Shown in pieces: positions 8,384 through 28,293 of a stretch of DNA of 32,000 nucleotides (positions are counted from its first letter, which is position 1; each line of letters begins with the position of its first letter). The position numbers and the translations under genes are program-made. The DNA is from Candidatus Saccharimonadota bacterium (GTDB lineage: Bacteria > Patescibacteriota > Gracilibacteria > UBA1369 > 2-02-FULL-48-14): contig JBAZVE010000001.1 of the NCBI GenBank assembly GCA_041661045.1, forward strand, positions 540,001 to 572,000, written 5' to 3'. The notes beneath the pieces were generated by a model. That model was not told where the DNA came from and did no database searches. It worked only from the letters and a program-made list of their open reading frames with translations.

Positions 8384-8384
8384 T

Positions 8385-11154: not shown

Positions 11155-11784
11155 ATGGCTATGACTGCAAAACTCGCATCGACTCTCACGAAAGATCGAC
11201 TTGCGCCCGGCGCGTTGGATGATGAGAGAGATTTGAGTATGCACGGGCTTGCGTATCGTGATGGATTTCTTCTTTTTGATGGGCAGGCCTATAAACCGAG
11301 CGTTCTCGATCGAGGAAGAGGGCTTGACCCCTCTAGTGGTGATATTTATTTGGGTGATGTTCAGTTTGAAACCTCTGTTGTTAACCGTTTTGTTGGGTCT
11401 TGGTACGATGGGATGTCTCAAGCGAATATTCGTGTTTCGGAGGGTCGCTTTATGGAGATACCCACGCTCTTTGAGATTGAACGGCTTTTTGTGGGCGATG
11501 TGGGTCGTTTTGAGGTGAGCCGTATGTATGGAGATGGAGTGGATATGGGTGACGATATTGCGAGGAGGGAAAATGGTCTTTTTCAAAGATGGCATCAGGA
11601 ATATCTAAGTGCGGTTGATGGGTCGTTAATGGGAAAGCCCGTACTTGAAGCAGATTTTGCACGGAGGTTGTCTGGGGGTTCTCGTCCACTCGACCTCACG
11701 AAACTTTATGGAGAAAGAATTCATGATCAACTTCGAGGTTTAAAGCGAAGGGACTTGAAGGAAAAGTATCCGGAACGGTATTAG
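11155..11784 (+). CDS. Hypothetical protein (209 aa)
   Basis: Long ORF with an ATG start and no competing better ORF. No motif recognised. Confidence 0.5.
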   Translation: MAMTAKLASTLTKDRLAPGALDDERDLSMHGLAYRDGFLLFDGQAYKPSVLDRGRGLDPSSGDIYLGDVQFETSVVNRFVGSWYDGMSQANIRVSEGRFMEIPTLFEIERLFVGDVGRFEVSRMYGDGVDMGDDIARRENGLFQRWHQEYLSAVDGSLMGKPVLEADFARRLSGGSRPLDLTKLYGERIHDQLRGLKRRDLKEKYPERY

Positions 11785-11852
11785 CGTGCCAGGCTTGTAG
11801 CTTCTGAAGACCTCATGTACTATTGTCACTTCAGTCGATTTGTATTTTAGAT

Positions 11853-12581
11853 ATGATCACTAACAGTGAATTGGAAGCAGGGCGTGTGTTTGATCCCGCA
11901 GTGCAAGGTGATGCGGAAAACATTGGGTTTGTGCATCGTCACTTAGAGATAGCTTTGAGCCATACAAGGCTGGGCCGTGTTGAACGAGGACTCGATGGAG
12001 ATGCCTTTGTTTTGTTGGAACAGTTGAGGTTTGCACATTTAGTCATAAGGAGTGTCCCTTCGGATGCACGCAGGGGGTTTGATCAGGATGAAATGGCAGT
12101 GTGTATGGCTGTTGCTGGTCTTTCGAAACAATTGGCAGATAGCTTGCTCGCAAATGGAGAGCCTCAAACGGTTGAACGAAAACGCAGCATCTTTCAGGCT
12201 TTAAGTGAATTCGATAAACTTACTTTGAATCGAGCTGATTTATTGGCGGAATTTTACCCGAAAGTTCAAGTGGCTTTGGACTTGGCGGAACACTATAAAC
12301 GGGCTGGCATTTTAATGCGGTTTTATAGATTGAATCACTATCATCCAAACAAGGCGGTAAGGGGCATGGCAAAGATGGTTTTGTTCGACTTTTTAATGCC
12401 TGCATTGGACTATGTTGGGGAGTCACCGTCGGGAGCTCAGTCCCCAGAGGAGTTGAGTGATATTATGTCCGTATGGTCGAAGCTTGAGGGTACAGAACGG
12501 GCAGGTATGCCGACGGGGCTTTCTCCTCAAGTTTTAGATTCGTGGCTTTGTGGACATGAGAGAGACCTGTTAAGCTCCTAA
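11853..12581 (+). CDS. Hypothetical protein (about 242 aa)
   Basis: ORF track starts at TTG 11823, and the first ATG in frame is at 11853. No motif recognised. Confidence 0.5.
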   Translation: MITNSELEAGRVFDPAVQGDAENIGFVHRHLEIALSHTRLGRVERGLDGDAFVLLEQLRFAHLVIRSVPSDARRGFDQDEMAVCMAVAGLSKQLADSLLANGEPQTVERKRSIFQALSEFDKLTLNRADLLAEFYPKVQVALDLAEHYKRAGILMRFYRLNHYHPNKAVRGMAKMVLFDFLMPALDYVGESPSGAQSPEELSDIMSVWSKLEGTERAGMPTGLSPQVLDSWLCGHERDLLSS

Positions 12582-13057
12582 ATCTTCCGTGAGTCGTAGG
12601 CCCAGTGGAGGAGGGCTTGTCTTTGTTTGCGGCGGCAATTTTGCTGGCCAGGTTCACAGTTCTTTTGAATTTGTGCGATGTGCCGTTTCATGGCCTTCCA
12701 ACGCTTGATTTGCCTCTGGTCTTCCTCGGGAGTTCGACGGCCGAGATAATAGCGACAATACCATTGGAACCAGCCTCGTGGATCTTGAGGGTGTATCCAG
12801 CCTTTCTTTTGCCAGTATTCGAGTGGCATGGAGGCTTCGACGCCAAAGCAGTTCGATTTTTTCACATGAAGAAACCAAGATTTGGGGAATTCGTCGGGTT
12901 CATCGGCGATGTAAGTTCCATTGAAGACGCCGAGCTCGAGCATTTCTTTGGGGGTGAGCTCCGGTTTGAATTCAGGATCGAAATCTTTACCCGTTGGACA
13001 AGTCAGCAGGTAGTAGCCGTTTTGGAAGGAATCGTTGATGAGGATTTTCTTGGGCAC
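12578..13057 (-). CDS. Conserved hypothetical protein, Trp-rich (GWIHPQDPRGWFQWYCRYYLGRR motif)
   Basis: 159-aa ORF with a GTG start. The Trp/Arg-rich motif looks like a conserved family, but I cannot name it with confidence. Confidence 0.55.
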   Translation of the reverse strand: MPKKILINDSFQNGYYLLTCPTGKDFDPEFKPELTPKEMLELGVFNGTYIADEPDEFPKSWFLHVKKSNCFGVEASMPLEYWQKKGWIHPQDPRGWFQWYCRYYLGRRTPEEDQRQIKRWKAMKRHIAQIQKNCEPGQQNCRRKQRQALLHWAYDSRKI

Positions 13058-13079
13058 AGCTAGAGTGTAGCACTAGGTT

Positions 13080-13409
13080 CTATTTTGTGGTGCCCCGGTC
13101 TCTGGTTTTATTGATTTGATCGACGAGGGCTTGCATTCTTCTTTCGAGTTCAAAGAATTCTTTTTCTGGGATGAATCTGAACTGGTGGGCGGCCGTGTTT
13201 TTTTGTCGATTTTCCTGACTTGCCATTGTAGCGTGGATCCTTCGTTTCAGCGTTCTGCTGAACAAGCTTAGCGCTTCTTTCCCCATGCTTTCTTCGGCCC
13301 ATTGTTGAAAGGCAGCGAGGTTTTGGACGGAAACAAATCTCTCTCCTTTACGAGGGTGGAATTCCTCCTCCTTCTCCTCTTCTTGGTGCCGGTCCGTAGT
13401 CATGCGCAT
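13080..13409 (-). CDS. Hypothetical protein (109 aa), charged/helical
   Basis: ATG start. Divergent from the ABC transporter gene. No motif recognised. Confidence 0.45.
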   Translation of the reverse strand: MRMTTDRHQEEEKEEEFHPRKGERFVSVQNLAAFQQWAEESMGKEALSLFSRTLKRRIHATMASQENRQKNTAAHQFRFIPEKEFFELERRMQALVDQINKTRDRGTTK

Positions 13410-13438
13410 AGTTTAGACATATTCCAAACTTTAGTCAA

Positions 13439-15232
13439 ATGGTGGGGAGTTTTTCTTTGTGCTTTAATGGGGGCATGAAGAATGCGTATTTTCAATTGAT
13501 CAAGACGGCGTGGACTTTTGCGGAGGGGCGAAGGGGGTGGTTTGTGTTGGCGTATGGCATGTTTACGATGGCGAACATTGTGGCCATGGCGGAGCCTTTG
13601 ATTTTGGGCTTGTTCCTCAATGAAGTGCAGCTGCATGGGCTTGAAAATGAGAAAAAGATTTTGTTGTATTTATTGGCGTACCCCGGCATTCAGCTTTTGT
13701 TTTGGCTCTTCCATGGGAATGCGCGGGTGATTGAGCGCATCAATGCGTACCACATTCTGGACAGTTACAGGAGAAAGCTTTTTGATTTGCTTTCATCCTT
13801 GCCCCTCAAGTGGCACAAAAACAACCATTCCGGGGGAACCATGAGTCGGCTTGAAAAGGGGTCCGGAGCGCTGAGAAATTTTGTGGAAGAAGGGTTCCAG
13901 TACATCGAGACCGTGGTGCGGTTTTTTGCTTCGGCGGTGGCTCTCTTTTTTCTTTCGACTTATGCGGGCCTGGTGGCTTTGGCTCTGGGCCTGGTCTGTG
14001 CGCTTGTTATTTTTAGGTTTGATAAACAGCTGATTCGCTACAACACGGAAATGAACGAAGATTGGCATAAATATGACGCTTCTTTCTATGACTATGTGGT
14101 GAATATGAGAACGGTTATTACTTTGCGTCTGGAAAAACTCGCGAAAAAGGAGACGGTTAAACGGTTTTTACAGCTCTTCCCAACCTGGAAAAAGAACGCC
14201 AAGGTGAACGAGCTCAAGTGGTTTTTTCTCAGCATGGTTTTGGCGGGCCTGTCTTCGCTGGTGATGTTGATTTATTTGTACCAACAGTGGGCGAGTGGGA
14301 CGGTGATTTTGATTGGAACTACGGTGGCGCTTTATGAATACGCGCATCGATTCACCAATGTGTTTTTTGATGTGGCATGGAAGTACGAACAGTTGGTTCG
14401 TTACAATACAAATCTTAAATCGGTGGGGCCCATTTGGGAGGCGGCGGAACTGCTGGGCAGTGGAAGTGGAGTGAAACCCATTTCATCCAAGTGGAAACGA
14501 GTGGAAATCCGCGAGCTTTCGTTCCGTTATGAGGATGAAAAGCATCGAACCCACAATTTAAAAGATGTTCATTTGGTTTTGGAGCGCGGCAAGAAAATCG
14601 CCTTGGTGGGGGAGAGTGGCAGTGGGAAAAGCACCTTGCTCGCCTTGCTTCGTGGCCTGGAAGTTCCGGATCATGTCAAAGTGGTGGTGGACGGAAAGGA
14701 GCTTGGCCTGCGCGCTTTATCGGGCCAAATGACTTTGATTCCGCAAGACCCGGAGATTTTTGAAAACACCATTGAATACAATGTGACGGCGGGCATCTCC
14801 CATCGAGCGAGCGAGATTTCGGACGCGATTCGTTTGGCGCGGTTTGATACGGTGGTGAAACGCCTGCCGCGTGGTCTCGACACGAATATTAAAGAAAAAG
14901 GAGTGAATCTTTCGGGAGGAGAGAAACAGCGGCTCGCCTTGGCGCGTGGGATTTTTGCCGCCAAAGACAGCAGTTTTGTACTCTTGGACGAGCCCACGAG
15001 CAGTGTGGACACCAAAAATGAGGTGAAAATTTACGAGTCTCTCTTTGAGCATTTTAAAGACCGCTGCATCATTTCCACCATTCATCGGCTCCACTTGCTT
15101 CCGGAATTCGACAAAATCTACCTCTTTGAACAGGGTGAACTAAAGGCGGAGGGAAGTTTTGACGACTTGCTCAAGCACTATCCTCCTTTTCAGAAGATGT
15201 GGGCCGTGTATCAGAAGGCTTTAAATCGCTGA
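13439..15232 (+). CDS. ABC transporter, fused permease/ATP-binding protein (type I exporter, MsbA-like)
   Basis: N-terminal six-TM region. Walker A is GESGSGKST, the signature is LSGGEKQRLALARGIF, and Walker B is FVLLDEPTSSVD. An alternative start at ATG 13475 (MKNAYF) is possible. Confidence 0.88.
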   Translation: MVGSFSLCFNGGMKNAYFQLIKTAWTFAEGRRGWFVLAYGMFTMANIVAMAEPLILGLFLNEVQLHGLENEKKILLYLLAYPGIQLLFWLFHGNARVIERINAYHILDSYRRKLFDLLSSLPLKWHKNNHSGGTMSRLEKGSGALRNFVEEGFQYIETVVRFFASAVALFFLSTYAGLVALALGLVCALVIFRFDKQLIRYNTEMNEDWHKYDASFYDYVVNMRTVITLRLEKLAKKETVKRFLQLFPTWKKNAKVNELKWFFLSMVLAGLSSLVMLIYLYQQWASGTVILIGTTVALYEYAHRFTNVFFDVAWKYEQLVRYNTNLKSVGPIWEAAELLGSGSGVKPISSKWKRVEIRELSFRYEDEKHRTHNLKDVHLVLERGKKIALVGESGSGKSTLLALLRGLEVPDHVKVVVDGKELGLRALSGQMTLIPQDPEIFENTIEYNVTAGISHRASEISDAIRLARFDTVVKRLPRGLDTNIKEKGVNLSGGEKQRLALARGIFAAKDSSFVLLDEPTSSVDTKNEVKIYESLFEHFKDRCIISTIHRLHLLPEFDKIYLFEQGELKAEGSFDDLLKHYPPFQKMWAVYQKALNR

Positions 15233-15242
15233 TTCTTTTAAA

Positions 15243-15941
15243 ATGATGATTAAACGGCTGCCGGAAATTGATGCGCTTCGTGGAGTGGCCATTGTGGGGA
15301 TGGTGCTGTTCCATGCGGCGTTTATTGCGCTGATTTTTGGATTGATTGAGTTTGAACCTTATGGGTGGCCACTGATTGTGCCGGTGAGAGCGGTGCAATT
15401 TTTGTTTTTGGGTCTGATGGGAGTTTCGGTGCATTTGTCTTCACGCGGATTTGGAGGGCAGCTTGAGCGGGCGGGAATTTTGGCGGGGGCGGCGGCTTTG
15501 GTGAGTTTGGGCACAGCGCTGTTTTTTCCGGAGGAATTTGTACGATTTGGCGTTTTGCACTTTGCGATGGTGGCGATTCCAGTGGTTTCTTTGTTTAAAG
15601 GGAGGCCTGCTTTGGCCCTGTGGACTGCGGCAGGGAGTTTTCTTTTGGGAGAATTCTTTTTGAGTTTTCGAGTGGAATCCGAGTGGCTGTTCCCGTTTGG
15701 ACTCTTGAACTCCGGATTCACTTCGCTCGACTATTTCCCTCTTTTCCCCTGGCTTGCGGCTCCTTTGGTGGGGCTTGTGATTGGGGAGGCCGTTTATAAG
15801 AAGCGCGAGCCCACGGCGCTGGAAGCTTTGGCCGGTATCCCCGGTTTAGCGGCTTTGGGACGGCATTCCTTGGCCATTTATTTGTTGCATCCGCCGGTGC
15901 TTTTCGTTACCCTGTGGGCGCTTTCTTTGCTTCTAAAATGA
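15243..15941 (+). CDS. Membrane protein of the heparan-alpha-glucosaminide N-acetyltransferase-like (DUF1624) type
   Basis: [19 protein letters not shown] at the N-terminus and a polytopic membrane profile. The family assignment is from memory of the motif. Confidence 0.55.
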
Positions 15942-16801
15942 ATCAGACGGGACAAAATTTGGCTCAGATGCTTAAGGGCGGCGTGATTATGGATGTCACC
16001 ACTGCCGAACAAGCAAAAATTGCTGAAGCGGCGGGGGCCTGCGCGGTGATGGCGCTTGAACGCGTGCCATCGGATATTCGAAGAGATGGGGGTGTGGCGC
16101 GCATGAGCGACCCCGCCATGATTCAAGAAATTCAAGCGGTGGTGACCATTCCGGTGATGGCAAAAATTCGCATTGGGCACACGATGGAGGCGCAAGTTTT
16201 GGAAGCCCTCGATGTTGATTTTATTGATGAAAGTGAGGTTTTGACTCAGGCAGATCCGTTTGCGCATGTGGACAAAAGTGAGTTCAAAGTGCCTTTTGTG
16301 TGTGGGGCGCGGAACCTTGGGGAAGCGCTCCGGCGCATTGCCGAGGGGGCAAGCATGATTCGAACCAAGGGTGAGGCGGGGACCGGAAATATTGTGGAGG
16401 CGGTGCGGCACATTAAAACCATTGCGGCGGAAATTGCGGCCCTCAAACGCATGACGATTCCAGAACTCATGGCCGCCGCGGAAGAGATGCGGGTTTCGAT
16501 GCAATTGGTGGAAAGGGTGCGAGACTTGGGGCGACTGCCCGTGGTGAACTTCGCGGCGGGCGGGGTGGCCACTCCGGCGGATGCCGCGCTGTGCATGTAC
16601 TTGGGGTGTGACGGGGTTTTTGTGGGCAGCGGTATTTTTAAAGCGGCGGATCCTGCGCGGATGGCGCGAGCCGTGGTGGAGGCGGTGATTCACTGGGAAA
16701 ATCCGGCGAAAATTGCGGAACTTTCCAAGGGGCTTGGCGAAGCGATGCCGGGGCTGGAGGTGGGGGGATTGGAAGTGAGGATGCAGGAGAGGGGGAACTA
16801 A
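15938..16801 (+). CDS. pdxS: Pyridoxal 5'-phosphate synthase, lyase subunit PdxS
   Basis: [52 protein letters not shown]...[32 protein letters not shown] is a strong PdxS signature. ATG at 15938 overlaps the upstream stop (ATGA). Confidence 0.93.
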
Positions 16802-16815
16802 ACTACACTGCTGAC

Positions 16816-17337
16816 ATGATTGGAATTTTGGCACTTCAAGGCGGCGTAGCAGAACACGAGCAGGTTTTGGATCAGCTTGGTTTGGCGTGGAAGGAGGTTC
16901 GCTCGCTCGAAGACACTGAGGGGCTCACGGGGTTTATTATTCCCGGGGGAGAGAGCACGGTGATGGATTTGTTTATGACGAACTATGGGCTTAAGGACTG
17001 GCTCCTGGGCCGGCCGGCGGATTTTCCCATCTATGGAACTTGCGCGGGGCTCATTTTGCTGGCGCGGTATGGGCTTTTACCGGCGACGGTTTCACGCAAT
17101 GCGTATGGGCGGCAGAGCGCCAGTTTTGTGGCGGAGCTTAAAGTGGAGGGAGGAGGAACCCTTAAAGGGCATTTTATTCGAGCGCCAAAGATTACGGAGC
17201 AGGGTGAAGGGCTTGAAGTTTTGGTCACTCATGAGGGGAGTCCGGTTTTGGTTCGTTATGGCCAGGTTTGGGGCAGCAGCTTTCATCCTGAACTTGCCGG
17301 CGAAACACGGCTTCACCGGATGATCTTTTCGTGCTAA
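16816..17337 (+). CDS. pdxT: Pyridoxal 5'-phosphate synthase, glutaminase subunit PdxT
   Basis: MIGILALQGG...IIPGGESTVM...GTCAGLILLA...FIRAP...FHPEL has the class I glutamine amidotransferase triad context. It is adjacent to pdxS. Confidence 0.9.
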   Translation: MIGILALQGGVAEHEQVLDQLGLAWKEVRSLEDTEGLTGFIIPGGESTVMDLFMTNYGLKDWLLGRPADFPIYGTCAGLILLARYGLLPATVSRNAYGRQSASFVAELKVEGGGTLKGHFIRAPKITEQGEGLEVLVTHEGSPVLVRYGQVWGSSFHPELAGETRLHRMIFSC

Positions 17338-17365
17338 GTTGGGGTGGCTTTTTAACTTCCACTCA

Positions 17366-19021
17366 ATGATTAATCGTCGCCGTCTCTCTTTGGTCCTTTT
17401 GAGCTTGAGTCTCGTTTTGGCTTCTTGCTCCAAGGGAGGCACTCAAGAGGCTCATTTCAGTACACAAGGTTTTATCCCCGAAGCGTATATTCCCGCGGAC
17501 ATTGGTTTGCTGCTTTCGTACTCGACTCGTGATGATGCGCAATACGCGGCGGTGCAAGCTTTAGAAGTTGCGCTTGGAGATGAAGGACGGCTTTCCGAAA
17601 CGGCTTCGCAGACTTTGGACACGGGCCTCGGGTGGGAGGGTCTTGATTTTGAGGAAGACTTGAAGCCGGTTTTTGGAGAACAATTTCATATGGTTTATGG
17701 CCTTCGTCCCGTTGAAGGAGGGGAAGCGGAGAGCTTTACCGTGGTGACGCTGGAAGATTCAGAAAAAATGACCGCCTTGCTGGAATCCTTTGTTTCCACT
17801 GAAGAGCTTTCTTACAAAAAACTCAGCGAAATCGATGCGTTTGTACGAGAAGAAGACAAGCTTTTTATGACGGTGCATGAGGATCTGCTTTTTGTGAGCA
17901 ACACGGGCGAAAATCTTGTGGCAATGACGGAGCAGAAAAAGTCCGAAAGTTTGTGGGGAAGTGATTTGTACCAAGATACGGTGGAAAGAGTGGGCAGTGA
18001 CTTTGTTTTGTACGGAGTGATGTTTCCCGCTTCTTATGGTGAGGAGCTGTCTTCACTTGCCGGATTCTCGGTGGGCAGCATCCCCGCGGTGGTGGATCAA
18101 CAGGTTGTGGTCGTGAGGGCAGAGGAAGAAGGACTTCGTTTTGAAGCGTGGATGGATGCCAATAAAGAGAAGGCGAAAGAGGCCGGAATTTCTTTTGATA
18201 GCGTGCCTCGATCAGAACCTTATCTTTTCGAAAAAATTCCTGCCGCCGGACTTGTGGGCTACTTCGAATCTTTTGGACTCGCACAAACTTTTGCTCAAGC
18301 GGAGGCGCTTGGAGACAGCACCGGAAGTTTGGAGCAGCTCAAAACAGTTACGCGCAATTATTTTGGAATGGATTTCGAAGACCTCATGAGCTTTATGGAT
18401 AAGGGTTATTCTTTTGCAATACACCGAAATGCCAACACCTGGATACCCGGTTTGAGTATCATTGTGGACATCAGTTCCAATCCGGACAAGGCTGAAGATT
18501 TTGTGAACAAGCTGGATGGGCAGCTCAGCGGGCTCCTGCTTATTGCGGAACAAGCACTTCCCGGAGCAATCACCAAAGATACCATTTCTTGGGCGGGAGA
18601 AGAATTTGCTCACATCAACTTAGACCTTTCGGCCCTTCCACAAAGTGCGGAATCTCCGTTGCCCGCTCTTGGCACGGGGGCCTTGGAATTGGTTTATGGA
18701 ATTTCGGATGGGCGACTTATTATCTCTACGCTCACTGCTTGGGATGAGACCGGCGAGTTTGTGAAAGATAGTGAACTCTATAAAAATTTGAGTGGACAAG
18801 TGACGGAACAAAATGAAGGATTGGTTCTGGTTTCCGCTCAGGAACTTGCCGAAATGGTTCGAGGTTTCCGTGCGCTTCAAACGGAAGAGCTCACCGGTGA
18901 ATTGACGGAGGAAGTGACTCAGCTTGAAGACTTCCTTGAAGGATTTTTGGGGATGATCGCTCAAAGCAAAACAGAAGCTTACGAGAGTCGTTTTGGCGGA
19001 TTCTTAATGCTCGCGGACTGA
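17366..19021 (+). CDS. Putative lipoprotein, unknown function (about 551 aa)
   Basis: From ATG 17366 the sequence is MINRRRLSLVLLSLSLVLASCSKGG, a signal peptide with lipobox L-A-S-C. The rest is acidic and no family is recognised. Confidence 0.6.
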   Translation: MINRRRLSLVLLSLSLVLASCSKGGTQEAHFSTQGFIPEAYIPADIGLLLSYSTRDDAQYAAVQALEVALGDEGRLSETASQTLDTGLGWEGLDFEEDLKPVFGEQFHMVYGLRPVEGGEAESFTVVTLEDSEKMTALLESFVSTEELSYKKLSEIDAFVREEDKLFMTVHEDLLFVSNTGENLVAMTEQKKSESLWGSDLYQDTVERVGSDFVLYGVMFPASYGEELSSLAGFSVGSIPAVVDQQVVVVRAEEEGLRFEAWMDANKEKAKEAGISFDSVPRSEPYLFEKIPAAGLVGYFESFGLAQTFAQAEALGDSTGSLEQLKTVTRNYFGMDFEDLMSFMDKGYSFAIHRNANTWIPGLSIIVDISSNPDKAEDFVNKLDGQLSGLLLIAEQALPGAITKDTISWAGEEFAHINLDLSALPQSAESPLPALGTGALELVYGISDGRLIISTLTAWDETGEFVKDSELYKNLSGQVTEQNEGLVLVSAQELAEMVRGFRALQTEELTGELTEEVTQLEDFLEGFLGMIAQSKTEAYESRFGGFLMLAD

Positions 19022-20914: not shown

Positions 20915-20988
20915 AGGTCCATCGTATAGTGGTAGTACAGCGGTCTCCAAAACCGTTAGCGAGGGTTCGATTCCTTCTGGGCCTGCCA
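20915..20988 (+). tRNA. tRNA-Trp (anticodon CCA), encoded CCA
   Basis: AGGTCCATCGTATAGTGGTAGTACAGCGGTCTCCAAAACCGTTAGCGAGGGTTCGATTCCTTCTGGGCCTGCCA. Acceptor AGGTCCA/TGGGCCT. Anticodon stem GCGGT/ACCGT with loop CTCCAAA. T-arm GAGGG-TTCGATT-CCTTC. Confidence 0.88.
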
Positions 20989-20995
20989 TGATAAA

Positions 20996-21481
20996 ATGAT
21001 TGCAATGCGTATAAGATTTCTTTTTCTTCCTCTTTTATTCCTACTGAGCACCTGTTCGACTCAGGTTCAGGAAGAGGCAGAGAGACTCAAGATTCCTGAC
21101 TATGGTTTTGCATTGGAAGCCGACATGTCCGAGTGTGGGAGGCCCAACGCTGTTTTGAACTTTGATGTTGATAGATGGTTTTCCTATGTGGGTGAGCAAG
21201 CTGTTTTTTTTGCACGCGTGGATGGCATCTCAAGTGAAGGGGACTCACTTCGCTTGGAATGGGTGGTGAAAGGAAACGAACATGGGATGGTGAAGGAGGA
21301 TGTTTTTTTGTACGAAGAAGAGCTTGAGGTGAAGCAATGTCCGGATGGGAACTTGTATGCTTCCTCCCCATTGGATTCAGGGACTGAGAATTCAGTTGTG
21401 GGGATATTTGGAGGTTTTACTGCTCAGCTTTTTCAAGAGGACGAGCTTGTCTACAGTGCGCACCTTAGCCTTGGGCAGTAG
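20996..21481 (+). CDS. Putative lipoprotein (161 aa), unit A of the array
   Basis: MIAMRIRFLFLPLLFLLSTCSTQ is a signal peptide with a Cys at a lipobox-like position. The ATG lies only 8 nt after the tRNA-Trp 3' end. The stop codon TAG (21479-21481) overlaps the first base of repeat R1. Confidence 0.55.
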   Translation: MIAMRIRFLFLPLLFLLSTCSTQVQEEAERLKIPDYGFALEADMSECGRPNAVLNFDVDRWFSYVGEQAVFFARVDGISSEGDSLRLEWVVKGNEHGMVKEDVFLYEEELEVKQCPDGNLYASSPLDSGTENSVVGIFGGFTAQLFQEDELVYSAHLSLGQ

Positions 21482-21510
21482 TTCGAACTAGTTCCACGCT
21501 GGCCTGCCAA
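21481..21510 (+). repeat. Array repeat R1 (30 bp)
   Basis: gttcgaactagttccacgctggcctgccaa. It lies between the convergent stops of unit A (21481) and unit B (21515). Confidence 0.85.
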
Positions 21511-21514
21511 CTTA

Positions 21515-22753
21515 TTAAGAAGTCTTTTGAGCGCTGTTGAACTCTATAAAACGCTGTCTTGCTTCTTTAGCCGAACTGAAAGCCTCGGGAGGGTACCCTT
21601 CAAATAAGTCGTCGAATCGCTCTCTAAGTACTTTGCTTCTTTGTAGAGCGTCGCCCCACTTACGCAGCATTTCCAGCACCCCTTCATCTCTAGTGAACAC
21701 GCCCCCTTCCTGGCCCAGAATTTCTTGTATGAGGAGGAGGTTTACTTGTCCGGACGGAGTTTTCCTCAGCTCTTCTATACGAGCTTTTGTTATTTCAAAG
21801 AGTTTTTTGTACCTAGGTATAAACTCTGCTGCACGGCGAGAACTTGCACTGGTGGAACGCGTAGAGCGCCTAACCGCAGCCGCTTTATCCGCTATCCACA
21901 TGAGCCAAGAGTCTGGAGTGGCTTGTATGACTACACTCGTAGCGGCACTAACAGCAGTTAGAGCCATGAATCCGGCTGGTGCGATTATTGCCATGGGTTC
22001 ACCAACTGCAAATACGACGGGAAGTGAAGCCACGGTCAGAGTCGCCCCTCCTACGAATCCCCTTGTAGCGTACTCGCTGGTTCTCTCCTTTAAGGACATA
22101 GTACTGCCACGGGATATTTCATTACGGGCGTCATCTCCCGAAAACATTTGTACCCAGTCGTCGTCGGTGAAACTTTGTCCGGTCAGTGCTCGTTCAACAA
22201 TGGCAGTGTTCACTTGGGCCCAGACACCTCCGACCCATCCTTCTCCTAAAGCGCTTTGGATGAATCTACCATTGAAGAAAGAGTGGCCGGTTGGCTGAGA
22301 AAACCGTCCTCCTAAGGGTTGAGTCCCATCCAGTACTCGCAGACCTTCACCATGTACCTCATTCGCGGCTGCGGCAACACTGCTTGCATCGGCCGGGGTG
22401 AGCTGAGCAAATTGAGCAATGAACTCGGTGATGGTGTTAAAACGCAAGGCGCTATTTTTTTCCAAAGCCATTAAAATAGCGGCGCGATTGGGGAGATTGT
22501 CCCTTAGGCCATCCGTGGACTGCGCGACGATTCTTTGCAGGGCTGCCGTTTTTTGTCGCTGAGCTATATTGACTATATTAGGGTCTCTCGCGCCTTGGCC
22601 CAGCTCTTGCAGATCAAATATATGCAAGGTGGCCATGAAACTCCGTCCGTGCAGAGCGTCGATAATGTCGTCGATTTCATACAGATCTCCCGCAATAGCT
22701 ACAAAGCGAGGCTCTTTGGGTTTATCGGCGTTCTTGAGGAGATCATTGGGCAT
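21515..22753 (-). CDS. Hypothetical protein (412 aa) with central hydrophobic segments, unit B
   Basis: Long ORF with an ATG start. The central GGATLTVASLPVVFAVGEPMAIIAPAGFMALTAVSAATSVVIQA suggests two TM helices. No family recognised. Confidence 0.55.
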   Translation of the reverse strand: MPNDLLKNADKPKEPRFVAIAGDLYEIDDIIDALHGRSFMATLHIFDLQELGQGARDPNIVNIAQRQKTAALQRIVAQSTDGLRDNLPNRAAILMALEKNSALRFNTITEFIAQFAQLTPADASSVAAAANEVHGEGLRVLDGTQPLGGRFSQPTGHSFFNGRFIQSALGEGWVGGVWAQVNTAIVERALTGQSFTDDDWVQMFSGDDARNEISRGSTMSLKERTSEYATRGFVGGATLTVASLPVVFAVGEPMAIIAPAGFMALTAVSAATSVVIQATPDSWLMWIADKAAAVRRSTRSTSASSRRAAEFIPRYKKLFEITKARIEELRKTPSGQVNLLLIQEILGQEGGVFTRDEGVLEMLRKWGDALQRSKVLRERFDDLFEGYPPEAFSSAKEARQRFIEFNSAQKTS

Positions 22754-22773
22754 AAGAGTTTTTTGTTCCGTTA

Positions 22774-22802
22774 ATTATACCTTATTTCTCCGATTTTATC
22801 TA
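22774..22802 (-). promoter_or_regulatory. Candidate promoter for unit B (TAGATA-N17-TATAAT on minus strand)
   Basis: Consensus -10 TATAAT (plus-strand attata, 22774-22779) lies 20 nt upstream of the ATG. A weak -35 is at 22797-22802. The element ends 8 nt from repeat R2. Confidence 0.35.
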
Positions 22803-22809
22803 TCTAATG

Positions 22810-22839
22810 GCTCGAACCAGTTCCCCGTTGGCCTGCCAA
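22810..22839 (+). repeat. Array repeat R2 (30 bp)
   Basis: gctcgaaccagttccccgttggcctgccaa, 26/30 identical to R1. It lies between divergent units B and C. Confidence 0.8.
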
Positions 22840-22895
22840 GCAATAGTTAGACAAGCCGCCTCCTCTTTGATAGATTGGGCGCTTCTTATTTGTTT

Positions 22896-23837
22896 ATGGT
22901 GAATCGGTTGAGAGCGTGGGTGGGAGGTGAATTCACTGCGTGGGCTGAGTGGGTGGCTGCTCGACCTGAAATGAGAGAATATCTTTTGATTCAAGAACAA
23001 AATGATCGGTTGCATTCGCGTGCTCCAGGAAAGTATGAAAATATCACGGCCGTTTTTAAGGTGCTGGCCACTTTCAACCCCCTTTCACGCTTTTTAGGAA
23101 CTATGCCGGAGGGTTATGCTCCAGCCATTGAAGTGGCTTACCACCTTTGCCGTTGGGTGGATGATGTTGCGGATGGGGATCTGCCATTGCCGGAGTCTTA
23201 TAAGGATTTTGCTGCTTTGGTAGCCGCACTTAAAGTTCATCTTTCTGGAAGCTCTGCCCTGTCTGCTGAAGACACCGACCTAGAGTTTTTGTTAAAACGC
23301 ACGCTTCAAAAACTGGACAAGCATCCGGTGCCTACTATCGATATACGAAAAGAAATGGGCCTTTTTCTTGATGCCATGCAGGTGGAACATGACAAACGAG
23401 TGGAGGGAGAGGTTCTCACTCGTGAGAAGCTCGAGGCACTTTATAGAGGCTCCTTTGGGCCACCTCATATGCTCGCATTCGCAGCATTGGGGTCAAGTTG
23501 TTCGGGTGAGGCCATTGCTGATCTTTTTCAACTTCAAGGGCGCTTGTATGCCGTTAGAGATTTGATTCCGGAACTTTCCAAAGGGATTATTTTTATTCCG
23601 CTGGAGGTGGTGAAGGAGAGTGGGCTGCGCCAGGACGAGTTGACTGGCGATCCAGAAACAGCCGTGCAAAATGAAGTCATTCAAAGGTGGATTGCCGAAG
23701 AAGATCGCTATGGACTTCAAACCATCGCAGCTCTTCGTGAGAAGTCGAAGAGTCTTCCTTTGGATGTGAAGGGAGTGGTGGAGTTCTTGGTTAAACCTAT
23801 TGAAGTGAACATTAGGACTCGGCGAGCCATTTCTTAG
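22896..23837 (+). CDS. Squalene/phytoene synthase family-like protein (head-to-head isoprenoid synthase fold), unit C
   Basis: AIEVAYHLCRWVDDVADGD fits the first Asp-rich motif context (xxCRxxDDxxD). LFQLQGRLYAVRDLIPELSKGIIFIPLEVVKESGL parallels the second motif region (FQLxNxxRDxxED...G..YxPxE), with the second motif partly degenerate. First ATG is at 22896; the ORF track TTG is at 22875. Confidence 0.55.
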   Translation: MVNRLRAWVGGEFTAWAEWVAARPEMREYLLIQEQNDRLHSRAPGKYENITAVFKVLATFNPLSRFLGTMPEGYAPAIEVAYHLCRWVDDVADGDLPLPESYKDFAALVAALKVHLSGSSALSAEDTDLEFLLKRTLQKLDKHPVPTIDIRKEMGLFLDAMQVEHDKRVEGEVLTREKLEALYRGSFGPPHMLAFAALGSSCSGEAIADLFQLQGRLYAVRDLIPELSKGIIFIPLEVVKESGLRQDELTGDPETAVQNEVIQRWIAEEDRYGLQTIAALREKSKSLPLDVKGVVEFLVKPIEVNIRTRRAIS

Positions 23838-23853
23838 CTTTTGCTTAATGGAT

Positions 23854-23892
23854 GTTCGAACTAGTTTCCCGTTGGCTCTGTCGCTAAGCCAA
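23854..23892 (+). repeat. Array repeat R3 (39 bp variant with a 9-nt expansion inside the TGGC..GCCAA core)
   Basis: gttcgaactagtttcccgttggctctgtcgctaagccaa. The first 23 nt are 20/23 identical to R1. The stop codon of minus-strand unit D (23884-23886) lies inside the expansion. Confidence 0.7.
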
Positions 23893-24147
23893 TAGGGTCA
23901 GCCAAATAGCTTTTCGTTTTAAGTCACAGAATTGGATCACTTGCTCAAAGCTGCGGCCGCTTTCAAGACTAGTTTGCAGCTTCATATACTCTTCGACGGC
24001 ACCGTAGAAATTTGCGGGTATGCCGAGCCCTGAATTTACAACAGCTTCTCGTTCGTGTGCTGAACCTGAACGCATATCAGTAATCAGAACTTTTGTTCCT
24101 GGTTCAAGTGTTCTTAGTTCTTCTATAGATAAAGGTGTATCCCCCAT
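23884..24147 (-). CDS. Hypothetical small protein (87 aa from ATG), unit D
   Basis: MGDTPLSIEELRTLEPGTKVLITDMRSGSAHEREAVV... The ATG at 24147 is preceded by a TTGACA-N17-TAAATT promoter-like element. The ORF track GTG start at 24270 would include that promoter, so I reject it. Confidence 0.45.
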   Translation of the reverse strand: MGDTPLSIEELRTLEPGTKVLITDMRSGSAHEREAVVNSGLGIPANFYGAVEEYMKLQTSLESGRSFEQVIQFCDLKRKAIWLTLLA

Positions 24148-24154
24148 GTCGTAT

Positions 24155-24183
24155 AATTTATATGTATTTCTCAGTTTTGTCAA
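24155..24183 (-). promoter_or_regulatory. Candidate promoter for unit D (TTGACA-N17-TAAATT on minus strand)
   Basis: Consensus -35 TTGACA (plus-strand tgtcaa, 24178-24183). The -10-like TAAATT (24155-24160) lies 7 nt upstream of the ATG. Confidence 0.4.
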
Positions 24184-24359
24184 GGTGTTTGAACTAAAAA
24201 GACCCCAGAGATGAATATCCCTGTGGAAAGAATTTTTACAGGGGTACCTCTTCCTGGTACGGATGAACACGAGATTTATTTGAATAAGGGTTCAGGGATG
24301 GTCGAGTTTGCAGGTACTATTTCGGATGGAGAGGTCATTTCTTTATAGGTTAAAAATCC

Positions 24360-24389
24360 ATTCGAACTCGTTCTATGCTGGCCTGCCAA
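24360..24389 (+). repeat. Array repeat R4 (30 bp)
   Basis: attcgaactcgttctatgctggcctgccaa, 26/30 identical to R1. It lies between divergent units D and E. Confidence 0.8.
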
Positions 24390-24405
24390 ATTAACCTGTG
24401 ACTTT

Positions 24406-24426
24406 GGGTCGATTCCCGCAGGGCCT
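24406..24426 (+). other. tRNA T-arm/acceptor-like fragment following R4
   Basis: gggtcgattcccgcagggcct compared with tRNA-Trp gggttcgattccttctgggcct. The T-loop and acceptor blocks are shared while the stem positions differ. Confidence 0.5.
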
Positions 24427-24427
24427 C

Positions 24428-24455
24428 TTGACATATTGTAAAAAATATGTACTAT
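24428..24455 (+). promoter_or_regulatory. Candidate promoter for unit E (TTGACA-N16-TACTAT)
   Basis: Consensus -35 TTGACA at 24428-24433, directly abutting the tRNA-like fragment. -10-like TACTAT at 24450-24455. The ATG is at 24494. Confidence 0.4.
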
Positions 24456-24493
24456 ATTTACGAAGTAACAAATTTAATCTCTACAATCAAAAC

Positions 24494-25126
24494 ATGAGCA
24501 CTCCAGAAACACCTATAGATTATGAGGAGCTTAGTAGGCGTACATTCCCTGATGTTGAGGCTTTTCTTTCCTGTTTGGAAGATGAATATGGTTTAGATGT
24601 TAGTAGGTTAACTGTCGAAGGGCAAAGGGTATCACGTCCACTTAGCCCACTCGCGTACCCAAATGCACAAGGTCAAATTGCGTTTGCAGCTGGTGTTACT
24701 GTTACTAAAGAAATATTTCGATTGGCGATTGATGCTTTATCGGTTAAACCCTCCACTGTTCTACCAACACAGGCTTTCAGGTTACCTGCAAGCATTGGCA
24801 TACGAGTAGCTGATGCATTGAGAAGATTTCCGACTCCGCCAGAAGCTGAGATCGGTGAAGCTAGAGGGATTCTTATTGAGCGAGATGGAGGATACTTCTT
24901 TATGTCTGAGGCTGGTCAAGAGTACCGTGTTGTAGAGGAAGGTTTGGCCTCGTTAGAGCGAGTTTTTGATGCAGATGACAAAGCTGCACTACTAAGAGGA
25001 AGTACAGAAATAGGTCAACAGGGGTGCCGACCACTACTGTTAGTTGAATTAAATCCGATAGATCCATCTCCAGGTATAGAGCAGGTTGTGACTAAATTTT
25101 GGGATCCTGAGGAGTACGAGAGTTAG
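24494..25126 (+). CDS. Hypothetical protein (210 aa from ATG), unit E
   Basis: MSTPETPIDYEELSRRTFPDVEAF... The ORF track GTG start at 24398 would run through the tRNA-like fragment and the promoter, so the ATG at 24494 is preferred. No family recognised. Confidence 0.5.
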   Translation: MSTPETPIDYEELSRRTFPDVEAFLSCLEDEYGLDVSRLTVEGQRVSRPLSPLAYPNAQGQIAFAAGVTVTKEIFRLAIDALSVKPSTVLPTQAFRLPASIGIRVADALRRFPTPPEAEIGEARGILIERDGGYFFMSEAGQEYRVVEEGLASLERVFDADDKAALLRGSTEIGQQGCRPLLLVELNPIDPSPGIEQVVTKFWDPEEYES

Positions 25127-25146
25127 ACATATGGATTCTATAATTA

Positions 25147-25176
25147 GTTCGGACTGGTTCCACGCTGGCCTGCCAA
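25147..25176 (+). repeat. Array repeat R5 (30 bp)
   Basis: gttcggactggttccacgctggcctgccaa, 28/30 identical to R1. It lies between tandem units E and F. Confidence 0.85.
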
Positions 25177-25188
25177 GTAACCTGATGT

Positions 25189-25213
25189 GAGAGTTCGATT
25201 CCTGTTGGGGTTC
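25189..25213 (+). other. tRNA T-arm/acceptor-like fragment following R5
   Basis: gagagttcgattcctgttggggttc compared with tRNA-Trp gagggttcgattccttctgggcctg, about 20/25 identical. Confidence 0.55.
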
Positions 25214-25286
25214 TGGTGGTATCCATTTTAGTGTTTCTTAGTTTCATCCTCTAGGAGTACTATGTTTTTAGCTTAAAAACTTTACC

Positions 25287-26501
25287 ATGAAGATTCGCTT
25301 CCTCGCGCTTTCCGTCATCCTTTTTTTTGCTTTCCCCACTATCAGTTTGGCAGCAGATGTTGACTCTCTGGCTGACTACGATGTCGAAATGAACTTTTCC
25401 ATGTCTTACAGTGAAGATTTATCTGAGGGTGTCTCGGGTTCTTTGAGGGGGACTTACATTATCAGCGTTGATACTGAAGATGAAGTATATTGGAATGCGA
25501 CTTACACATGTGGCTACGAACTTATTCTTAGCGAGGAAGATCCTTTAGAAAACGACGATTATGAAGTGATTTATGAGGGTGGTAGTGAATGTGATAGGTC
25601 CTTAGGATCAGGGGATTACTTGATCAGCCAAGGGGAATCTTATAATGGTGGTATTTCACTCGGTGGGCAGGATTTCATTCAAGACGGAGCTCATTATTGG
25701 TATCAGTTCACCCTCTACACTATTGATGAGGTGGCCGCAGTCGTGGATTTTGAGACTGTTGTTGGAGATTTTACCATCGAATTTGATGAACTCGACGAGC
25801 CTTTTACTGATGTGAATGGACATTGGGCGGAGAACTACATCAATGCCTTGGCTACTGATGAAGTTGTTTTAGGGTATACAGATGGTACCTATAAACCGGA
25901 TCAGCAGACTTCTCGTGCGGAGGTGCTTGTCATGGCGCTAAAAGCCATCGCTGATCCCTCTTCTGAAAACGACACCTGTGCTTATGATTTTGACTTAGAA
26001 CAAGATTACACTGCCACTTACACGGATCTTGATTCATCTCACTGGGGGTTTACATATATTGAAGCAGCTACCGAGGCTGGTGTGGTTTCTGGTTATGGCG
26101 ATGGTTCGTTTAGGCCTGATCAAACCGTCACCCGTGCCGAAGCGTTATCTATTCTTCTGGAAACTTACTTTGCCTGTGGTGACTATTATGACATTGATGA
26201 CTGGTATGATAACTATGATCGATACTCGAGTGATCCGGTAGAAAATGATGGAGAGTTTTGGGCGGCTTACTTAGAACAAGGATACGGTGTGGCCAGTGAA
26301 CAAAATCTTGCACTTGGATTTGCCGATGTCACCGAGGATTGGCAGCGCTTCTATGTTCACTTTGCAGACATTCATGGTGTGGTGAATGGATACTTTGAGG
26401 GAGTTACTCTATTTCTCCCTAATAATCCGATTACTCGTGCTGAACTTGCCAAAATGGCATGGAAGTTACGCGTAAATCCCCATAATCCGGAACCCTTTTA
26501 A
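25287..26501 (+). CDS. Secreted protein with three C-terminal S-layer homology (SLH) domains, unit F
   Basis: Signal peptide MKIRFLALSVILFFAFPTISLAA. SLH-like repeats are FTDVNGHWAENYINALATDEVVLGYTDGTYKPDQQTSRAEVLVMALKAI, YTDLDSSHWGFTYIEAATEAGVVSGYGDGSFRPDQTVTRAEALSILLE and FADVTEDWQRFYVHFADIHGVVNGYFEGVTLFLPNNPITRAELAKMAWKL. Confidence 0.75.
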   Translation: MKIRFLALSVILFFAFPTISLAADVDSLADYDVEMNFSMSYSEDLSEGVSGSLRGTYIISVDTEDEVYWNATYTCGYELILSEEDPLENDDYEVIYEGGSECDRSLGSGDYLISQGESYNGGISLGGQDFIQDGAHYWYQFTLYTIDEVAAVVDFETVVGDFTIEFDELDEPFTDVNGHWAENYINALATDEVVLGYTDGTYKPDQQTSRAEVLVMALKAIADPSSENDTCAYDFDLEQDYTATYTDLDSSHWGFTYIEAATEAGVVSGYGDGSFRPDQTVTRAEALSILLETYFACGDYYDIDDWYDNYDRYSSDPVENDGEFWAAYLEQGYGVASEQNLALGFADVTEDWQRFYVHFADIHGVVNGYFEGVTLFLPNNPITRAELAKMAWKLRVNPHNPEPF

Positions 26502-26538
26502 TCGTACGAAACGAAAATTTAGATCCCTCGTATAATTA

Positions 26539-26568
26539 GGTCGAACTCGTTCCACGCTGGCCTGCCAA
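26539..26568 (+). repeat. Array repeat R6 (30 bp)
   Basis: ggtcgaactcgttccacgctggcctgccaa, 28/30 identical to R1. It is the last copy seen. A weak T-loop-like remnant tgtgatatagttcgaaagcatttg follows at 26587-26610. Confidence 0.85.
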
Positions 26569-26619
26569 TAAGCATTTTTAGGGCTTTGTGATATAGTTCG
26601 AAAGCATTTGTTTTTTAAA

Positions 26620-28293
26620 ATGGAAAAAAACTGTAATCACTGCGAAATAAGATTCGAAATTCCTGAAGAAGATTTGGAATTTTTCCACAAAATTTCACCG
26701 GTTTTTAATAATGTGAGGTACCTGATTCCAGAACCTGCGCTGTGTCCAGACTGTCGCTTGCAAAGGAGGATCAGTTGGAGGAATGAAAGGGCACTTTATA
26801 TGCGAGCCTGTGATTTGTGCAAAAAAAATATTGTCTCTGTTTACTCTCCGGGTAAGCCTCATCCTGTTTATTGCAACGCGTGTTGGTGGGGGGATGGATG
26901 GGATGGACACCACTATGGAAGAGAGGTCGATTTTTCACGGCCGTTTTTTGATCAACTCAGAGAGGTGATGGAAGTGGTGCCTCAGTTGGCCATTCAAAAT
27001 GATGAGGGAAATGGCAGTGAAAATTGCCAATACTGCCAGGATTTTGCTCATGGGAAAAATTGTTATTTTGTGGTTGGTTCGTGGCATACAGAAAACTCTT
27101 TTTACTCTAATGTGAATGCTTCCCACAATCGGTCTATTTGTGATTGCATCAATGTTTCCAAATCGGAGCTCGTGTATGAAAGCCTGGATTCCCAAGCGCT
27201 CTACAACTGTGCTTTTCTACAAAATTCCCAAAATTGCAGTGACTGCATCTTCGGGTTTGATCTCAAAGGATGCAGAAATTGTTTTGGGTGTTTTGGTCTG
27301 AGGCAGAAGGAGTTTTATTTTTTTAATGAACCCTTGAGTGAAGCAGAGTACAAGAAAAAACTCACTGCTTTTGCTTTAGACTCCTATAAAAATTTAGAAC
27401 TTATTAAGAAACAGTTTTTGGGCTGGATTGTGCAGTTCCCACATAAAAGCACGAGCCAACAAAATTGTGAGAACTGTGAGGGAAATGATTTGTTCAATTG
27501 TAAAAACACTCAGGGATTCAGTCTTCTGGATGCGGAAAATTGTAAGTACTGCCATCAAGGGGATAATAACATGTTCAGCTACGACATTTTTAATAGTGGA
27601 CAGCCCAACTGGTGTTACGAAGGCATGACCCCAGACAACTCGTTTATGACTCATTTTTCGTGGTTCTCTTGGAAAAATAAATTCGTACTTTATGGGATCA
27701 ATTGTCACAGCAGTGAACATCTTTTTGGATGTGTTTCTCTTCACCGAGCTAAATACAGCATTCTCAATAAACAGTACTCAAAGGAAGAGTATGAGGCTTT
27801 GGTTCCGAAGATCATTGAACACATGAAAAAAGGTGGTGAGTGGGGTGAATTTCCACCAGCTCGCATTTCTTACTTCGATTACAACGAGAGCATCGCTCAA
27901 GAATATTTTCCTTTGAAAAAAGAAGAGGTTTTGGCACAAGCTTGGAAGTGGAAAGATCCTGACCCCAAAGAGTACCGGACGCAAACTTGTGTGATTCCCG
28001 ATTCTATTTTGGAGGCGACTGATGTTCTTAGCAAAGAAGTTCTGGCCTGCATCGAGTGTGGTAAAAACTATAAAGTGATTCCTCTCGAATTCGAATTCTA
28101 TAAAAAGATTTCTTTCCCCATCCCTCGGAAGTGTCCCGACTGTCGACATAAAGCACGGCTTGCTATCCGGTTGCCCTATCAGCTGTGGCAACGCAATTGT
28201 GCAAAATGTTCTAAATCCATTCAGACTCCCTACGCGCCCACACGGCTTGAGGTGATTTACTGTGAAGAGTGCTATTTGAAGGAGATTTATTAA
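26620..28293 (+). CDS. Cysteine-rich protein (557 aa) with similar N- and C-terminal double zinc-ribbon-like modules and a central region of CxxC-type repeats
   Basis: N-terminal CNHC...FFHKISP...CPDCR...CDLCKKNI...VYCNAC and C-terminal CIECG...FYKKISFPIPRKCPDCR...CAKCSKSI...IYCEEC. ATG at 26620 is preferred over TTG at 26608. No family name recalled. Confidence 0.65.
   Translation: MEKNCNHCEIRFEIPEEDLEFFHKISPVFNNVRYLIPEPALCPDCRLQRRISWRNERALYMRACDLCKKNIVSVYSPGKPHPVYCNACWWGDGWDGHHYGREVDFSRPFFDQLREVMEVVPQLAIQNDEGNGSENCQYCQDFAHGKNCYFVVGSWHTENSFYSNVNASHNRSICDCINVSKSELVYESLDSQALYNCAFLQNSQNCSDCIFGFDLKGCRNCFGCFGLRQKEFYFFNEPLSEAEYKKKLTAFALDSYKNLELIKKQFLGWIVQFPHKSTSQQNCENCEGNDLFNCKNTQGFSLLDAENCKYCHQGDNNMFSYDIFNSGQPNWCYEGMTPDNSFMTHFSWFSWKNKFVLYGINCHSSEHLFGCVSLHRAKYSILNKQYSKEEYEALVPKIIEHMKKGGEWGEFPPARISYFDYNESIAQEYFPLKKEEVLAQAWKWKDPDPKEYRTQTCVIPDSILEATDVLSKEVLACIECGKNYKVIPLEFEFYKKISFPIPRKCPDCRHKARLAIRLPYQLWQRNCAKCSKSIQTPYAPTRLEVIYCEECYLKEIY

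Follow-up and report, generated by a model that had tools for sequence, protein, structure and literature searches.

The window analysed here, a 32,000-nucleotide stretch of contig JBAZVE010000001.1 (positions 540,001 to 572,000), contains a gene for tRNA-Trp(CCA) that is followed on its 3' side by six copies of a 30-nt repeat, hereafter R, which start at positions 21481, 22810, 23854, 24360, 25147 and 26539 and all lie on the plus strand. These copies split the 5.6 kb downstream of the tRNA (20989-26568) into six units, or cassettes (U1-U6), of 0.5-1.4 kb, with one long open reading frame (ORF) apiece; the ORFs are oriented +,-,+,-,+,+, and the R-to-R spacing is 506-1550 nt, with an ORF in every interval. 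The tRNA-Trp gene is still intact, and the region is an integration hotspot at its 3' end in a genome of the Peribacteria, within the candidate phyla radiation (CPR). The features of the array are as follows.

20915-20988, plus strand: tRNA-Trp(CCA), the anchor of the array (ARAGORN; Rfam, 60.5 bits).
20989-21510, plus strand: cassette U1 (522 bp), with ORF 20996-21481 (161 aa) and R1 at 21481-21510, GTTCGAACTAGTTCCACGCTGGCCTGCCAA.
21511-22839, minus strand: cassette U2, with ORF 21515-22753 (412 aa, orphan), a promoter-like site at 22802-22774 and R2 at 22810-22839.
22840-23892, plus strand: cassette U3, with ORF 22875-23837 (320 aa) and R3 at 23854-23880 (or to 23892), with the variant core GGCTCTG.
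23881-24389, minus strand: cassette U4, with ORF 23884-24270 (128 aa, orphan) and R4 at 24360-24389.
24390-25176, plus strand: cassette U5, with ORF 24494-25126 (210 aa, orphan) and R5 at 25147-25176.
24392-24427 and 24428-24455: 5' parts of U5, respectively a module resembling the 3' half of tRNA-Trp and a promoter-like site, TTGACA-16-TACTAT.
25177-26568, plus strand: cassette U6, with a module at 25178-25213, ORF 25287-26501 (404 aa) and R6 at 26539-26568, the last copy.

The six-copy array behind tRNA-Trp had been described in an initial annotation of this DNA, and it was recovered by repeat search, ARAGORN and Rfam, together with the identities to R1 given there (26/30 for R2 and R4, 28/30 for R5 and R6). 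The consensus 30-mer fits R1, R4, R5 and R6 with at most 3 mismatches and has no match in 100 shuffles. R3, an ambiguous copy, agrees with R as far as ...GGCTCTG (23854-23880); beyond this point there is either divergence or the 9-nt insertion proposed earlier, which is possible and not required. No R copy beyond the six was found elsewhere in the 32-kb window, including by a position weight matrix (PWM) scan and in the part downstream of R6 to position 32000, and Pfam scans found no recombinase domain among the 30 window ORFs. The U1 protein has no Pfam, NCBIfam or PADLOC match, the U3 protein is weakly squalene/phytoene-synthase-like (Pfam SQS_PSY, E=9e-6), and the U6 protein carries three SLH domains (Pfam SLH, E=1e-38); beyond these last two, PADLOC and NCBIfam gave no defence or other assignment to any cassette protein.

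The association of R with tRNA-Trp extends to other genomes. A search of 185,579 species genomes with a degenerate R pattern, 21 of whose bases were fixed, gave only two matches, both in metagenome-assembled genomes (MAGs) of Peribacteria and 0.4-1.4 kb 3' of tRNA-Trp; the genomes closest to the source are likewise Candidatus Peribacteria MAGs. When 418 kb of related loci (designated L001 and so on) were scanned with the PWM, R-like sites lay 3' of tRNA-Trp and in the orientation of the tRNA, with one near-threshold exception just 5' of the L012 tRNA-Trp, which we read as a chance match. The R pattern had 0 matches in metagenome contigs of the Joint Genome Institute (JGI) and 0 in viral contigs, and a scan of metagenome contigs for anchor proteins yielded a single 1.5-kb locus. 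The scattering of the 30-mer over intergenic sites that the initial annotation had considered is thus not what is seen, and because R is linked to tRNA-Trp, an element of the repetitive extragenic palindromic (REP) type is not supported within the data covered.

Comparison of relatives indicates that whole units come and go at the boundaries defined by R and the tRNA. Orthologues of U2 (67-78% identity) adjoin tRNA-Trp in L002, L004, L005 and L008-L011. In L002, L004 and L009 the tRNA leads directly into the U2 homologue, with the flank ..CCTGCCA followed by A(C)(A)TTATTAAGAAGTC, and the identical flank is found in the window, where a 522-bp unit (U1 plus R1) lies between tRNA and U2 with both of its boundaries placed after CCTGCCA. 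U1, which is tRNA-proximal, is the newest insertion. An orthologue of U3 (86%) is present in L004, after the U2 homologue and an R. In L023, a 247-aa cassette with a terminal R is placed ahead of the cassette that comes first in L001 and L015, while L023, L024 and L025, 98-98.8% identical upstream, have three different first elements from 2 nt past the CCA: a cassette in L023, an element encoding a large serine recombinase (LSR) in L024 and, in L025, an acetyltransferase cassette whose R is perfect. L015 and L019 (99.5% identical) break at the same point. Overall, contigs from the same species (98-99.9% identical) lose their similarity no more than 2 nt from the tRNA CCA, and all mapped insertions fall 3' of it. 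Seventeen cassettes of 469-2538 bp, carrying 15 unrelated ORFs, were delimited, and 17/17 close with a P-arm site, either of the R type or related to it. R copies are 30/30 in L025 and 29/30 in L001 and L002, genomes in which the flanking protein is only 77-80% identical. This gain and loss of units exactly at repeat and tRNA boundaries supports the earlier proposal that R is a recombination site acting at the DNA level and delimiting cassettes.

An L005 copy of R (12034-12063, minus strand) is perfect over its 5' 21 nt and differs in the core (..GCTGCCGGCTCCA). Next to it comes a cassette for a RelB/YafQ toxin-antitoxin pair; at the far end of this cassette (11320-11345, minus strand), only ..CAGCTGCCA is retained before the U2 homologue. 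The core of R3, GGCTCTG, equals the acceptor-stem allele of the L012 tRNA-Trp (11459-11532, ..CTGGCTCTGCCA) and is unlike the resident tRNA (..TGGGCCTGCCA), which hints that the R3 site was formed in, or came from, another lineage.

LSR genes lie at the same tRNA end in related strains. L008 and L009 are 99.9% identical and differ by a 5.79-kb insertion at tRNA-Trp in L008, in which the gene for a 496-aa LSR (Resolvase, Recombinase and Zn-ribbon domains) abuts the tRNA-Trp 3' end and the sole duplicated sequence is the 7-nt core CCTGCCA. Elements of this family are also present at tRNA-Trp in L012, L013 and one JGI contig, and have a backbone comprising the LSR, Fic, restriction-modification or abortive-infection (Abi) cargo, a weak Phage_CRI-like protein and an HTH protein. 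The LSR at tRNA-Trp in L024 is only 27% identical to that of the L008 family, and L027 carries two different tandem LSR elements at a single tRNA-Trp (10001-17964; recombinases of 532 aa and 494 aa), direct evidence of LSR elements accumulating at this site. LSRs occur in at least 6 of about 20 tRNA-Trp loci, whose gene tables contain no tyrosine integrase. The statement in the initial annotation that no recombinase is in sight consequently holds for the window and fails for its relatives. A PDB sequence search with the LSR returned only the TP901-1 integrase catalytic domain (E=1.3e-4), and the sole viral relative is 32% identical.

The far ends of the L008-family elements are formed by a P arm that we call type 2 (e.g. 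AAAGTTCCAAGTGCATCCACTAAGCCCTGCCA), which aligns in register with R (21/32, ungapped) and also ends recombinase-less single-gene cassettes in L020 and L030. An R-like site in L012 was considered as the end of an LSR element and rejected, as the PWM scan locates that end at a type-2 site farther inside, and the R-like site terminates a 549-bp cassette of its own immediately past the element; the direct link between R and an LSR element in L012 was withdrawn for this reason. As a separate observation, the LSR ORFs of L008 (17116-17148) and L024 (2674-2706) read through the crossover and continue on the tRNA's antisense strand, and the two proteins, despite 27% identity, both have the C-terminus WQ(A/G)QKESNPR, so that integration or excision would alter the C-terminal tail of the recombinase.

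The likeness of R to the tRNA-Trp 3' end, already pointed out in the initial annotation, is significant (local alignment score 24, against 13.3 +/- 2.6 for shuffles, with 2/2000 shuffles reaching 24) and specific, the scores for tRNA-Ser and tRNA-Thr not being significant. A derivation of R from this tRNA end is supported. In the best alignment (R, GTTCGA[ACTAG]TTCC..CTGG-CCTGCCA; tRNA, GTTCGA-TTCC..CTGGGCCTGCCA), GTTCGA lies 5 bp farther out in R than in the tRNA 3' end. The attP sites reconstructed for the L013 and L012 elements show clear dyad symmetry about the CT dinucleotide of their core (14/25; next-best centre 8-9/25), and the core of R, TGGC-CT-GCCA, is a 4+2+4 palindrome. Counted from the CT centre, TTCGA occupies bp 12-17 in the tRNA and bp 17-22 in R, while TTCC is in equal register. 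In serine integrases, the motif bound by the zinc-ribbon domain is at bp 16-24 in attP and at bp 11-19 in attB, a shift of 5 bp (Rutherford et al. 2013, PMC3783163). Given this displacement and register, R has the anatomy of a P-type half-site partnering the tRNA-Trp 3' end. R and tRNA-Trp fit the attP/attB half-site rule, and binding and cleavage position are predicted from sequence: the last 25 nt of tRNA-Trp (20964-20988, GGTTCGATTCCTTCTGGGCCTGCCA) are the predicted attB-type left half-site (B arm), and CCTGCCA at the tRNA end is the predicted crossover core. The LI/A118 model of half-sites (Rutherford et al. 2013) is alike in the outward position of the distal motif with an equal inner register, in its short common core and in its non-palindromic central dinucleotide; it is unlike the array in that the array's cassette junctions lack conserved right half-sites, and the likeness is one of sequence alone. 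Folding energies of R (-0.2 to -1.5 kcal/mol) are no better than those of shuffles on either strand (z = +0.5 to +1.3), and R, having no secondary structure, should function in double-stranded form.

Site-specific recombination at the tRNA end very probably built the array, and an LSR is the enzyme that we consider the best candidate, with somewhat better than even chances. The reading that we favour, and hold to be fairly probable, is accordingly that of a recombinase-less cassette array made by LSR-type recombination at the tRNA-Trp 3' end. Each R would represent the left (P-type) half of an attP-like site at the far end of a small cassette without recombinase, and a cassette would enter by site-specific recombination between an R site and the tRNA 3' end, with the crossover falling within the common core, most likely at the CT dinucleotide. 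Such an event would leave the tRNA intact, place the newest cassette proximally and displace the older ones outward, giving a co-oriented array of the form tRNA, U1-R1, U2-R2, ..., U6-R6. The enzyme would most likely be an LSR acting in trans, provided by LSR elements, plasmid- or phage-like, that have this tRNA end as their target in related strains. An economical route would start from the excision of an integrated LSR element, whose tRNA-side junction (B arm plus P' arm) could pair with any downstream R, restoring a full attP on the circle and rejoining the tRNA to the sequence past that R. In this way the element would drop cassettes or pick them up as cargo, and these would have to conserve no more than their R half. 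That the cassettes are individually mobile today, including in the LSR-less source genome, is a more doubtful proposition, for which we see somewhat less than even chances.

Several observations weigh against LSR-type recombination as the origin of the array, or against its continued activity. The window encodes no recombinase, LSR included, and the source contig (1.32 Mb) carries none of the best 120 of 1912 LSR homologues (at least 47% identity), a weak negative since 1912 matches exist. In the loci sampled, R-type sites are found only on recombinase-less cassettes and never at the end of an LSR-bearing element. The cassette starts, which form the right halves of the junctions, are poorly conserved, whereas a canonical LSR attP has two half-sites, and reconstructed circles of R plus cassette show weak dyad symmetry (9-11/25). 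No excised circle or free attP was found by the R pattern in viral and JGI contigs or by a junction scan, the attL/attP junction pattern for free circular elements having 0 matches in viral contigs. Finally, R2 and its L004 orthologue are 24/30 identical, no better than adjacent DNA, and U2, U3 and the intervening R are long-term residents that have diverged with their host, which implies that some R copies may be inert scars.

Extended to the whole array, this last point becomes the strongest rival explanation, to which we give perhaps one chance in four: R copies would be fossil attR junctions from the serial integration of whole elements with their recombinases, which ordinary deletion later cut down to one gene each, and the array a decaying island in which neither recombination at R nor movement of single cassettes takes place today. 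It agrees with the lack of a recombinase in the window, with the vertical inheritance of U2-R-U3 across species at a divergence like that of the flanking DNA, with the degraded state of R3, and with relatives' junctions that are down to the bare core (L005 ..CAGCTGCCA, L020 ..GTTGCCCTGCCA). However, random deletion would not time and again yield units of 0.5-1.4 kb with their tRNA-side edge at the exact crossover, and the first feature of a unit is a promoter or an ORF start, not a remnant of the LSR that abuts the tRNA in intact elements. Conspecifics at 98-99.5% identity already differ by whole cassettes, the perfect or near-perfect R copies of L025, L001 and L002 stand beside a much more divergent protein, and the same pair of conserved ends surrounds unrelated ORFs.

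These two ends involve a second repeat family, which the initial annotation missed: modules of about 35 nt directly 3' of R4 (24392-24427) and R5 (25178-25213) that are colinear with the 3' half of tRNA-Trp (consensus TAACCTGATGAG.GAGTTCGATTCCTG.TGG). Modules are present in seven cassettes, each time with an R-type site at the opposite end; the further ones lie in L001 (1951-1990), in L015, in the second cassette of L023, in L012 (about 730-690, minus strand) and in L020 (14813-14850). They start 1-3 nt past the junction, or about 50 nt in for a 'long form' with a repeated TAACCTG, and a promoter-like site follows on their 3' side. The T stem is not kept, so the module looks like a feature of the DNA itself or a fossil. 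A symmetric attP made of R plus module was considered for the junctions and rejected on its weak dyad scores.

The modules are also an argument for a different recombinase, an unseen enzyme such as a tyrosine integrase encoded elsewhere that would use a classical tRNA-mimicking attP, an explanation we regard as improbable. This attP would consist of the end of R, CTGCCAA, plus the TAACCTG...GTTCGATTCC module, colinear with tRNA-Trp from the anticodon loop to the 3' end. Besides the colinearity of the cassette 5' modules with the tRNA-Trp 3' half, it can draw on the placement of a module directly after R at R4, at R5 and in L020, comparable to the tRNA fragments displaced by tyrosine-integrase islands (Islander, PMC4383910), and on the fact that R-type sites were never seen closing an LSR element. 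On the other hand, no tyrosine recombinase domain was found among the genes tabulated for about 20 tRNA-Trp loci, against LSRs in at least six, and R cannot be a displaced tRNA end: its T arm is interrupted by the 5-nt insertion, and the inserted form is present in every genome. A variant in which this enzyme might even integrate in the anticodon loop was considered and rejected, since the mapped insertions all lie past the 3' CCA and none in the anticodon loop.

The remaining alternative, that R is a non-recombinational repeat (REP-like, a bacterial interspersed mosaic element (BIME), a terminator or promoter, a small RNA or tRNA-like processing signal, an attC site or a CRISPR repeat), could appeal to the tRNA-like sequence of R and its position in short intergenic gaps, and is very unlikely given that neither strand folds better than shuffles, that the repeats have no Rfam match (E<=10), that R is fixed in orientation relative to the tRNA and not to the genes and occurs only 3' of tRNA-Trp, and that the inter-repeat segments are gene-sized, with no IntI and no cas genes.

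The same data uphold the earlier view that R is neither a terminator nor a promoter and the array neither a CRISPR array nor a classical integron, given the lack of a fold on either strand, the lack of IntI and the mixed gene orientations. A CRISPR array would have 20-70-nt spacers and cas genes, as opposed to the ORF-sized spacing and lack of cas domains seen here. REP/BIME elements were rejected since R has no hairpin, its 2 genome matches are both beside tRNA-Trp and it is found nowhere else in the window or in the 418 kb of related loci; Xer/pdif modules (28-bp XerC-6-XerD sites in alternating orientation) were rejected since all R copies are direct and have no 11-6-11 dyad.

The initial annotation also held that no described system has this layout, which is too strong: two families of islands share its logic. 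Staphylococcal cassette chromosome (SCC) islands, SCCmec and SCC-like, in which CcrAB or CcrC acts at the 3' end of rlmH/orfX, likewise have a single fixed chromosomal target, the 3' end of a housekeeping gene, with tandem units between co-oriented att repeats and, in the reading favoured here, an LSR as recombinase. SCC units without ccr are excised and circularised by Ccr from a neighbour, and SCCmec cassettes are typically 24-68 kb (PMC11470126). The array differs in its target, a tRNA and not rlmH, in its one-gene units of 0.5-1.4 kb and in its CPR host; moreover, mobilisation in trans, described for SCC, is here a putative process that would fit the architecture, and the only solved structure matched by the LSRs is the TP901-1 integrase catalytic domain. 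Tycheposon islands of Prochlorococcus arise by serial integration at one tRNA, have strain-variable content and mostly use tyrosine integrases (910/937; bioRxiv 10.1101/2020.12.28.424599). Tycheposon islands and Islander-type islands (PMC4383910) resemble the array in their outward displacement of older elements, tRNA-derived boundary repeats, degenerate remnants and strain-variable content. Their repeats, however, are partial copies of the tRNA, whereas R is a P-type half-site with a 5-bp spacer change, and here the recombinases at the site are all LSRs and the units are single genes without integrase. Of the hallmarks of serial-integration islands, the locus shows an intact tRNA anchor, strain-variable content, breakpoints at the tRNA and tRNA-related direct repeats; an island-encoded integrase is absent from the window and present in L008, L012, L013, L024 and L027.

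Integrons offer a functional analogy only, in that they too have single-gene cassettes (0.5-1.4 kb here) with one site each, a fixed platform, the newest cassette proximal and mostly orphan cargo. The array is unlike them in having no IntI tyrosine recombinase (30 window ORFs and related-locus gene tables), no attC-like hairpin in R, mixed gene orientations, cassettes with promoter-like sites of their own and the 3' end of a tRNA as platform. A bolder reading, tentative and in our view rather unlikely, makes the system a serine-recombinase counterpart of the integron, in which the tRNA-Trp 3' end would play the role of attI as a gene-capture platform of Peribacteria and non-autonomous cassettes of unrelated orphan genes, with a tRNA-like 5' module plus promoter and a 3' R, would be inserted, excised and swapped singly by LSRs that visiting plasmid-like elements bring; if true, it would be a main source of strain-level variation in gene content in these minimal genomes.

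By analogy, then, the logic of the array appears to be known already from SCC composite and tycheposon islands. What sets it apart from both is the use of a tRNA end by LSRs, the single-gene cassettes, the modified half-site in place of a tRNA copy and the CPR host. In the library searched we found no paper describing the locus, and none that combines Peregrinibacteria, serine recombinase and tRNA.

How CPR bacteria, whose genomes are very small, exchange genes is little described. The locus presents one tRNA end as a site of strain-level gene exchange with unusually small, single-gene, recombinase-less cassettes, and the R 30-mer beside tRNA-Trp is a simple marker for accessory genes in Peribacteria metagenomes. 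If the link to LSRs is true, this would be a natural system in which the cargo need retain no more than one of the two attP halves of a serine integrase, an example from nature of the 5-bp offset between attP and attB half-sites, and a source of compact tRNA-targeting LSR/att pairs for genome engineering.

Just past R6, the window encodes a 561-aa zinc-finger protein (26608-28293) with a homologue (34% identity) in the variable tRNA-Trp zone of L020 (13129-14802), which suggests that the accessory region of the window may reach beyond R6. In L026 (8510-8584), an LSR 81% identical to a tRNA-Trp LSR lies at the 3' end of tRNA-Arg(TCT), with a P' arm of like type (TACTGGAAGATTTGAATAC); the sequences suggest target switching among tRNAs with the common GGTTCGATTCC T arm. 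Elsewhere in the window, a low-GC tract (0.38-0.43) at 7082-10500, 3' of tRNA-Thr(GGT), contains a gene with HTH_3 and Peptidase_M78 domains (ImmA/IrrE-like; 7310-8383, minus strand) and a weakly HigB-like toxin gene (8385-8693, minus strand), and may be another small tRNA-associated island. In L020 (5379-6822) and L021, pdxS (SOR_SNZ) and pdxT (SNO) are separated by an insertion of a Fic-domain gene and a 100-aa ORF; the window and the other relatives have the two pdx genes side by side.

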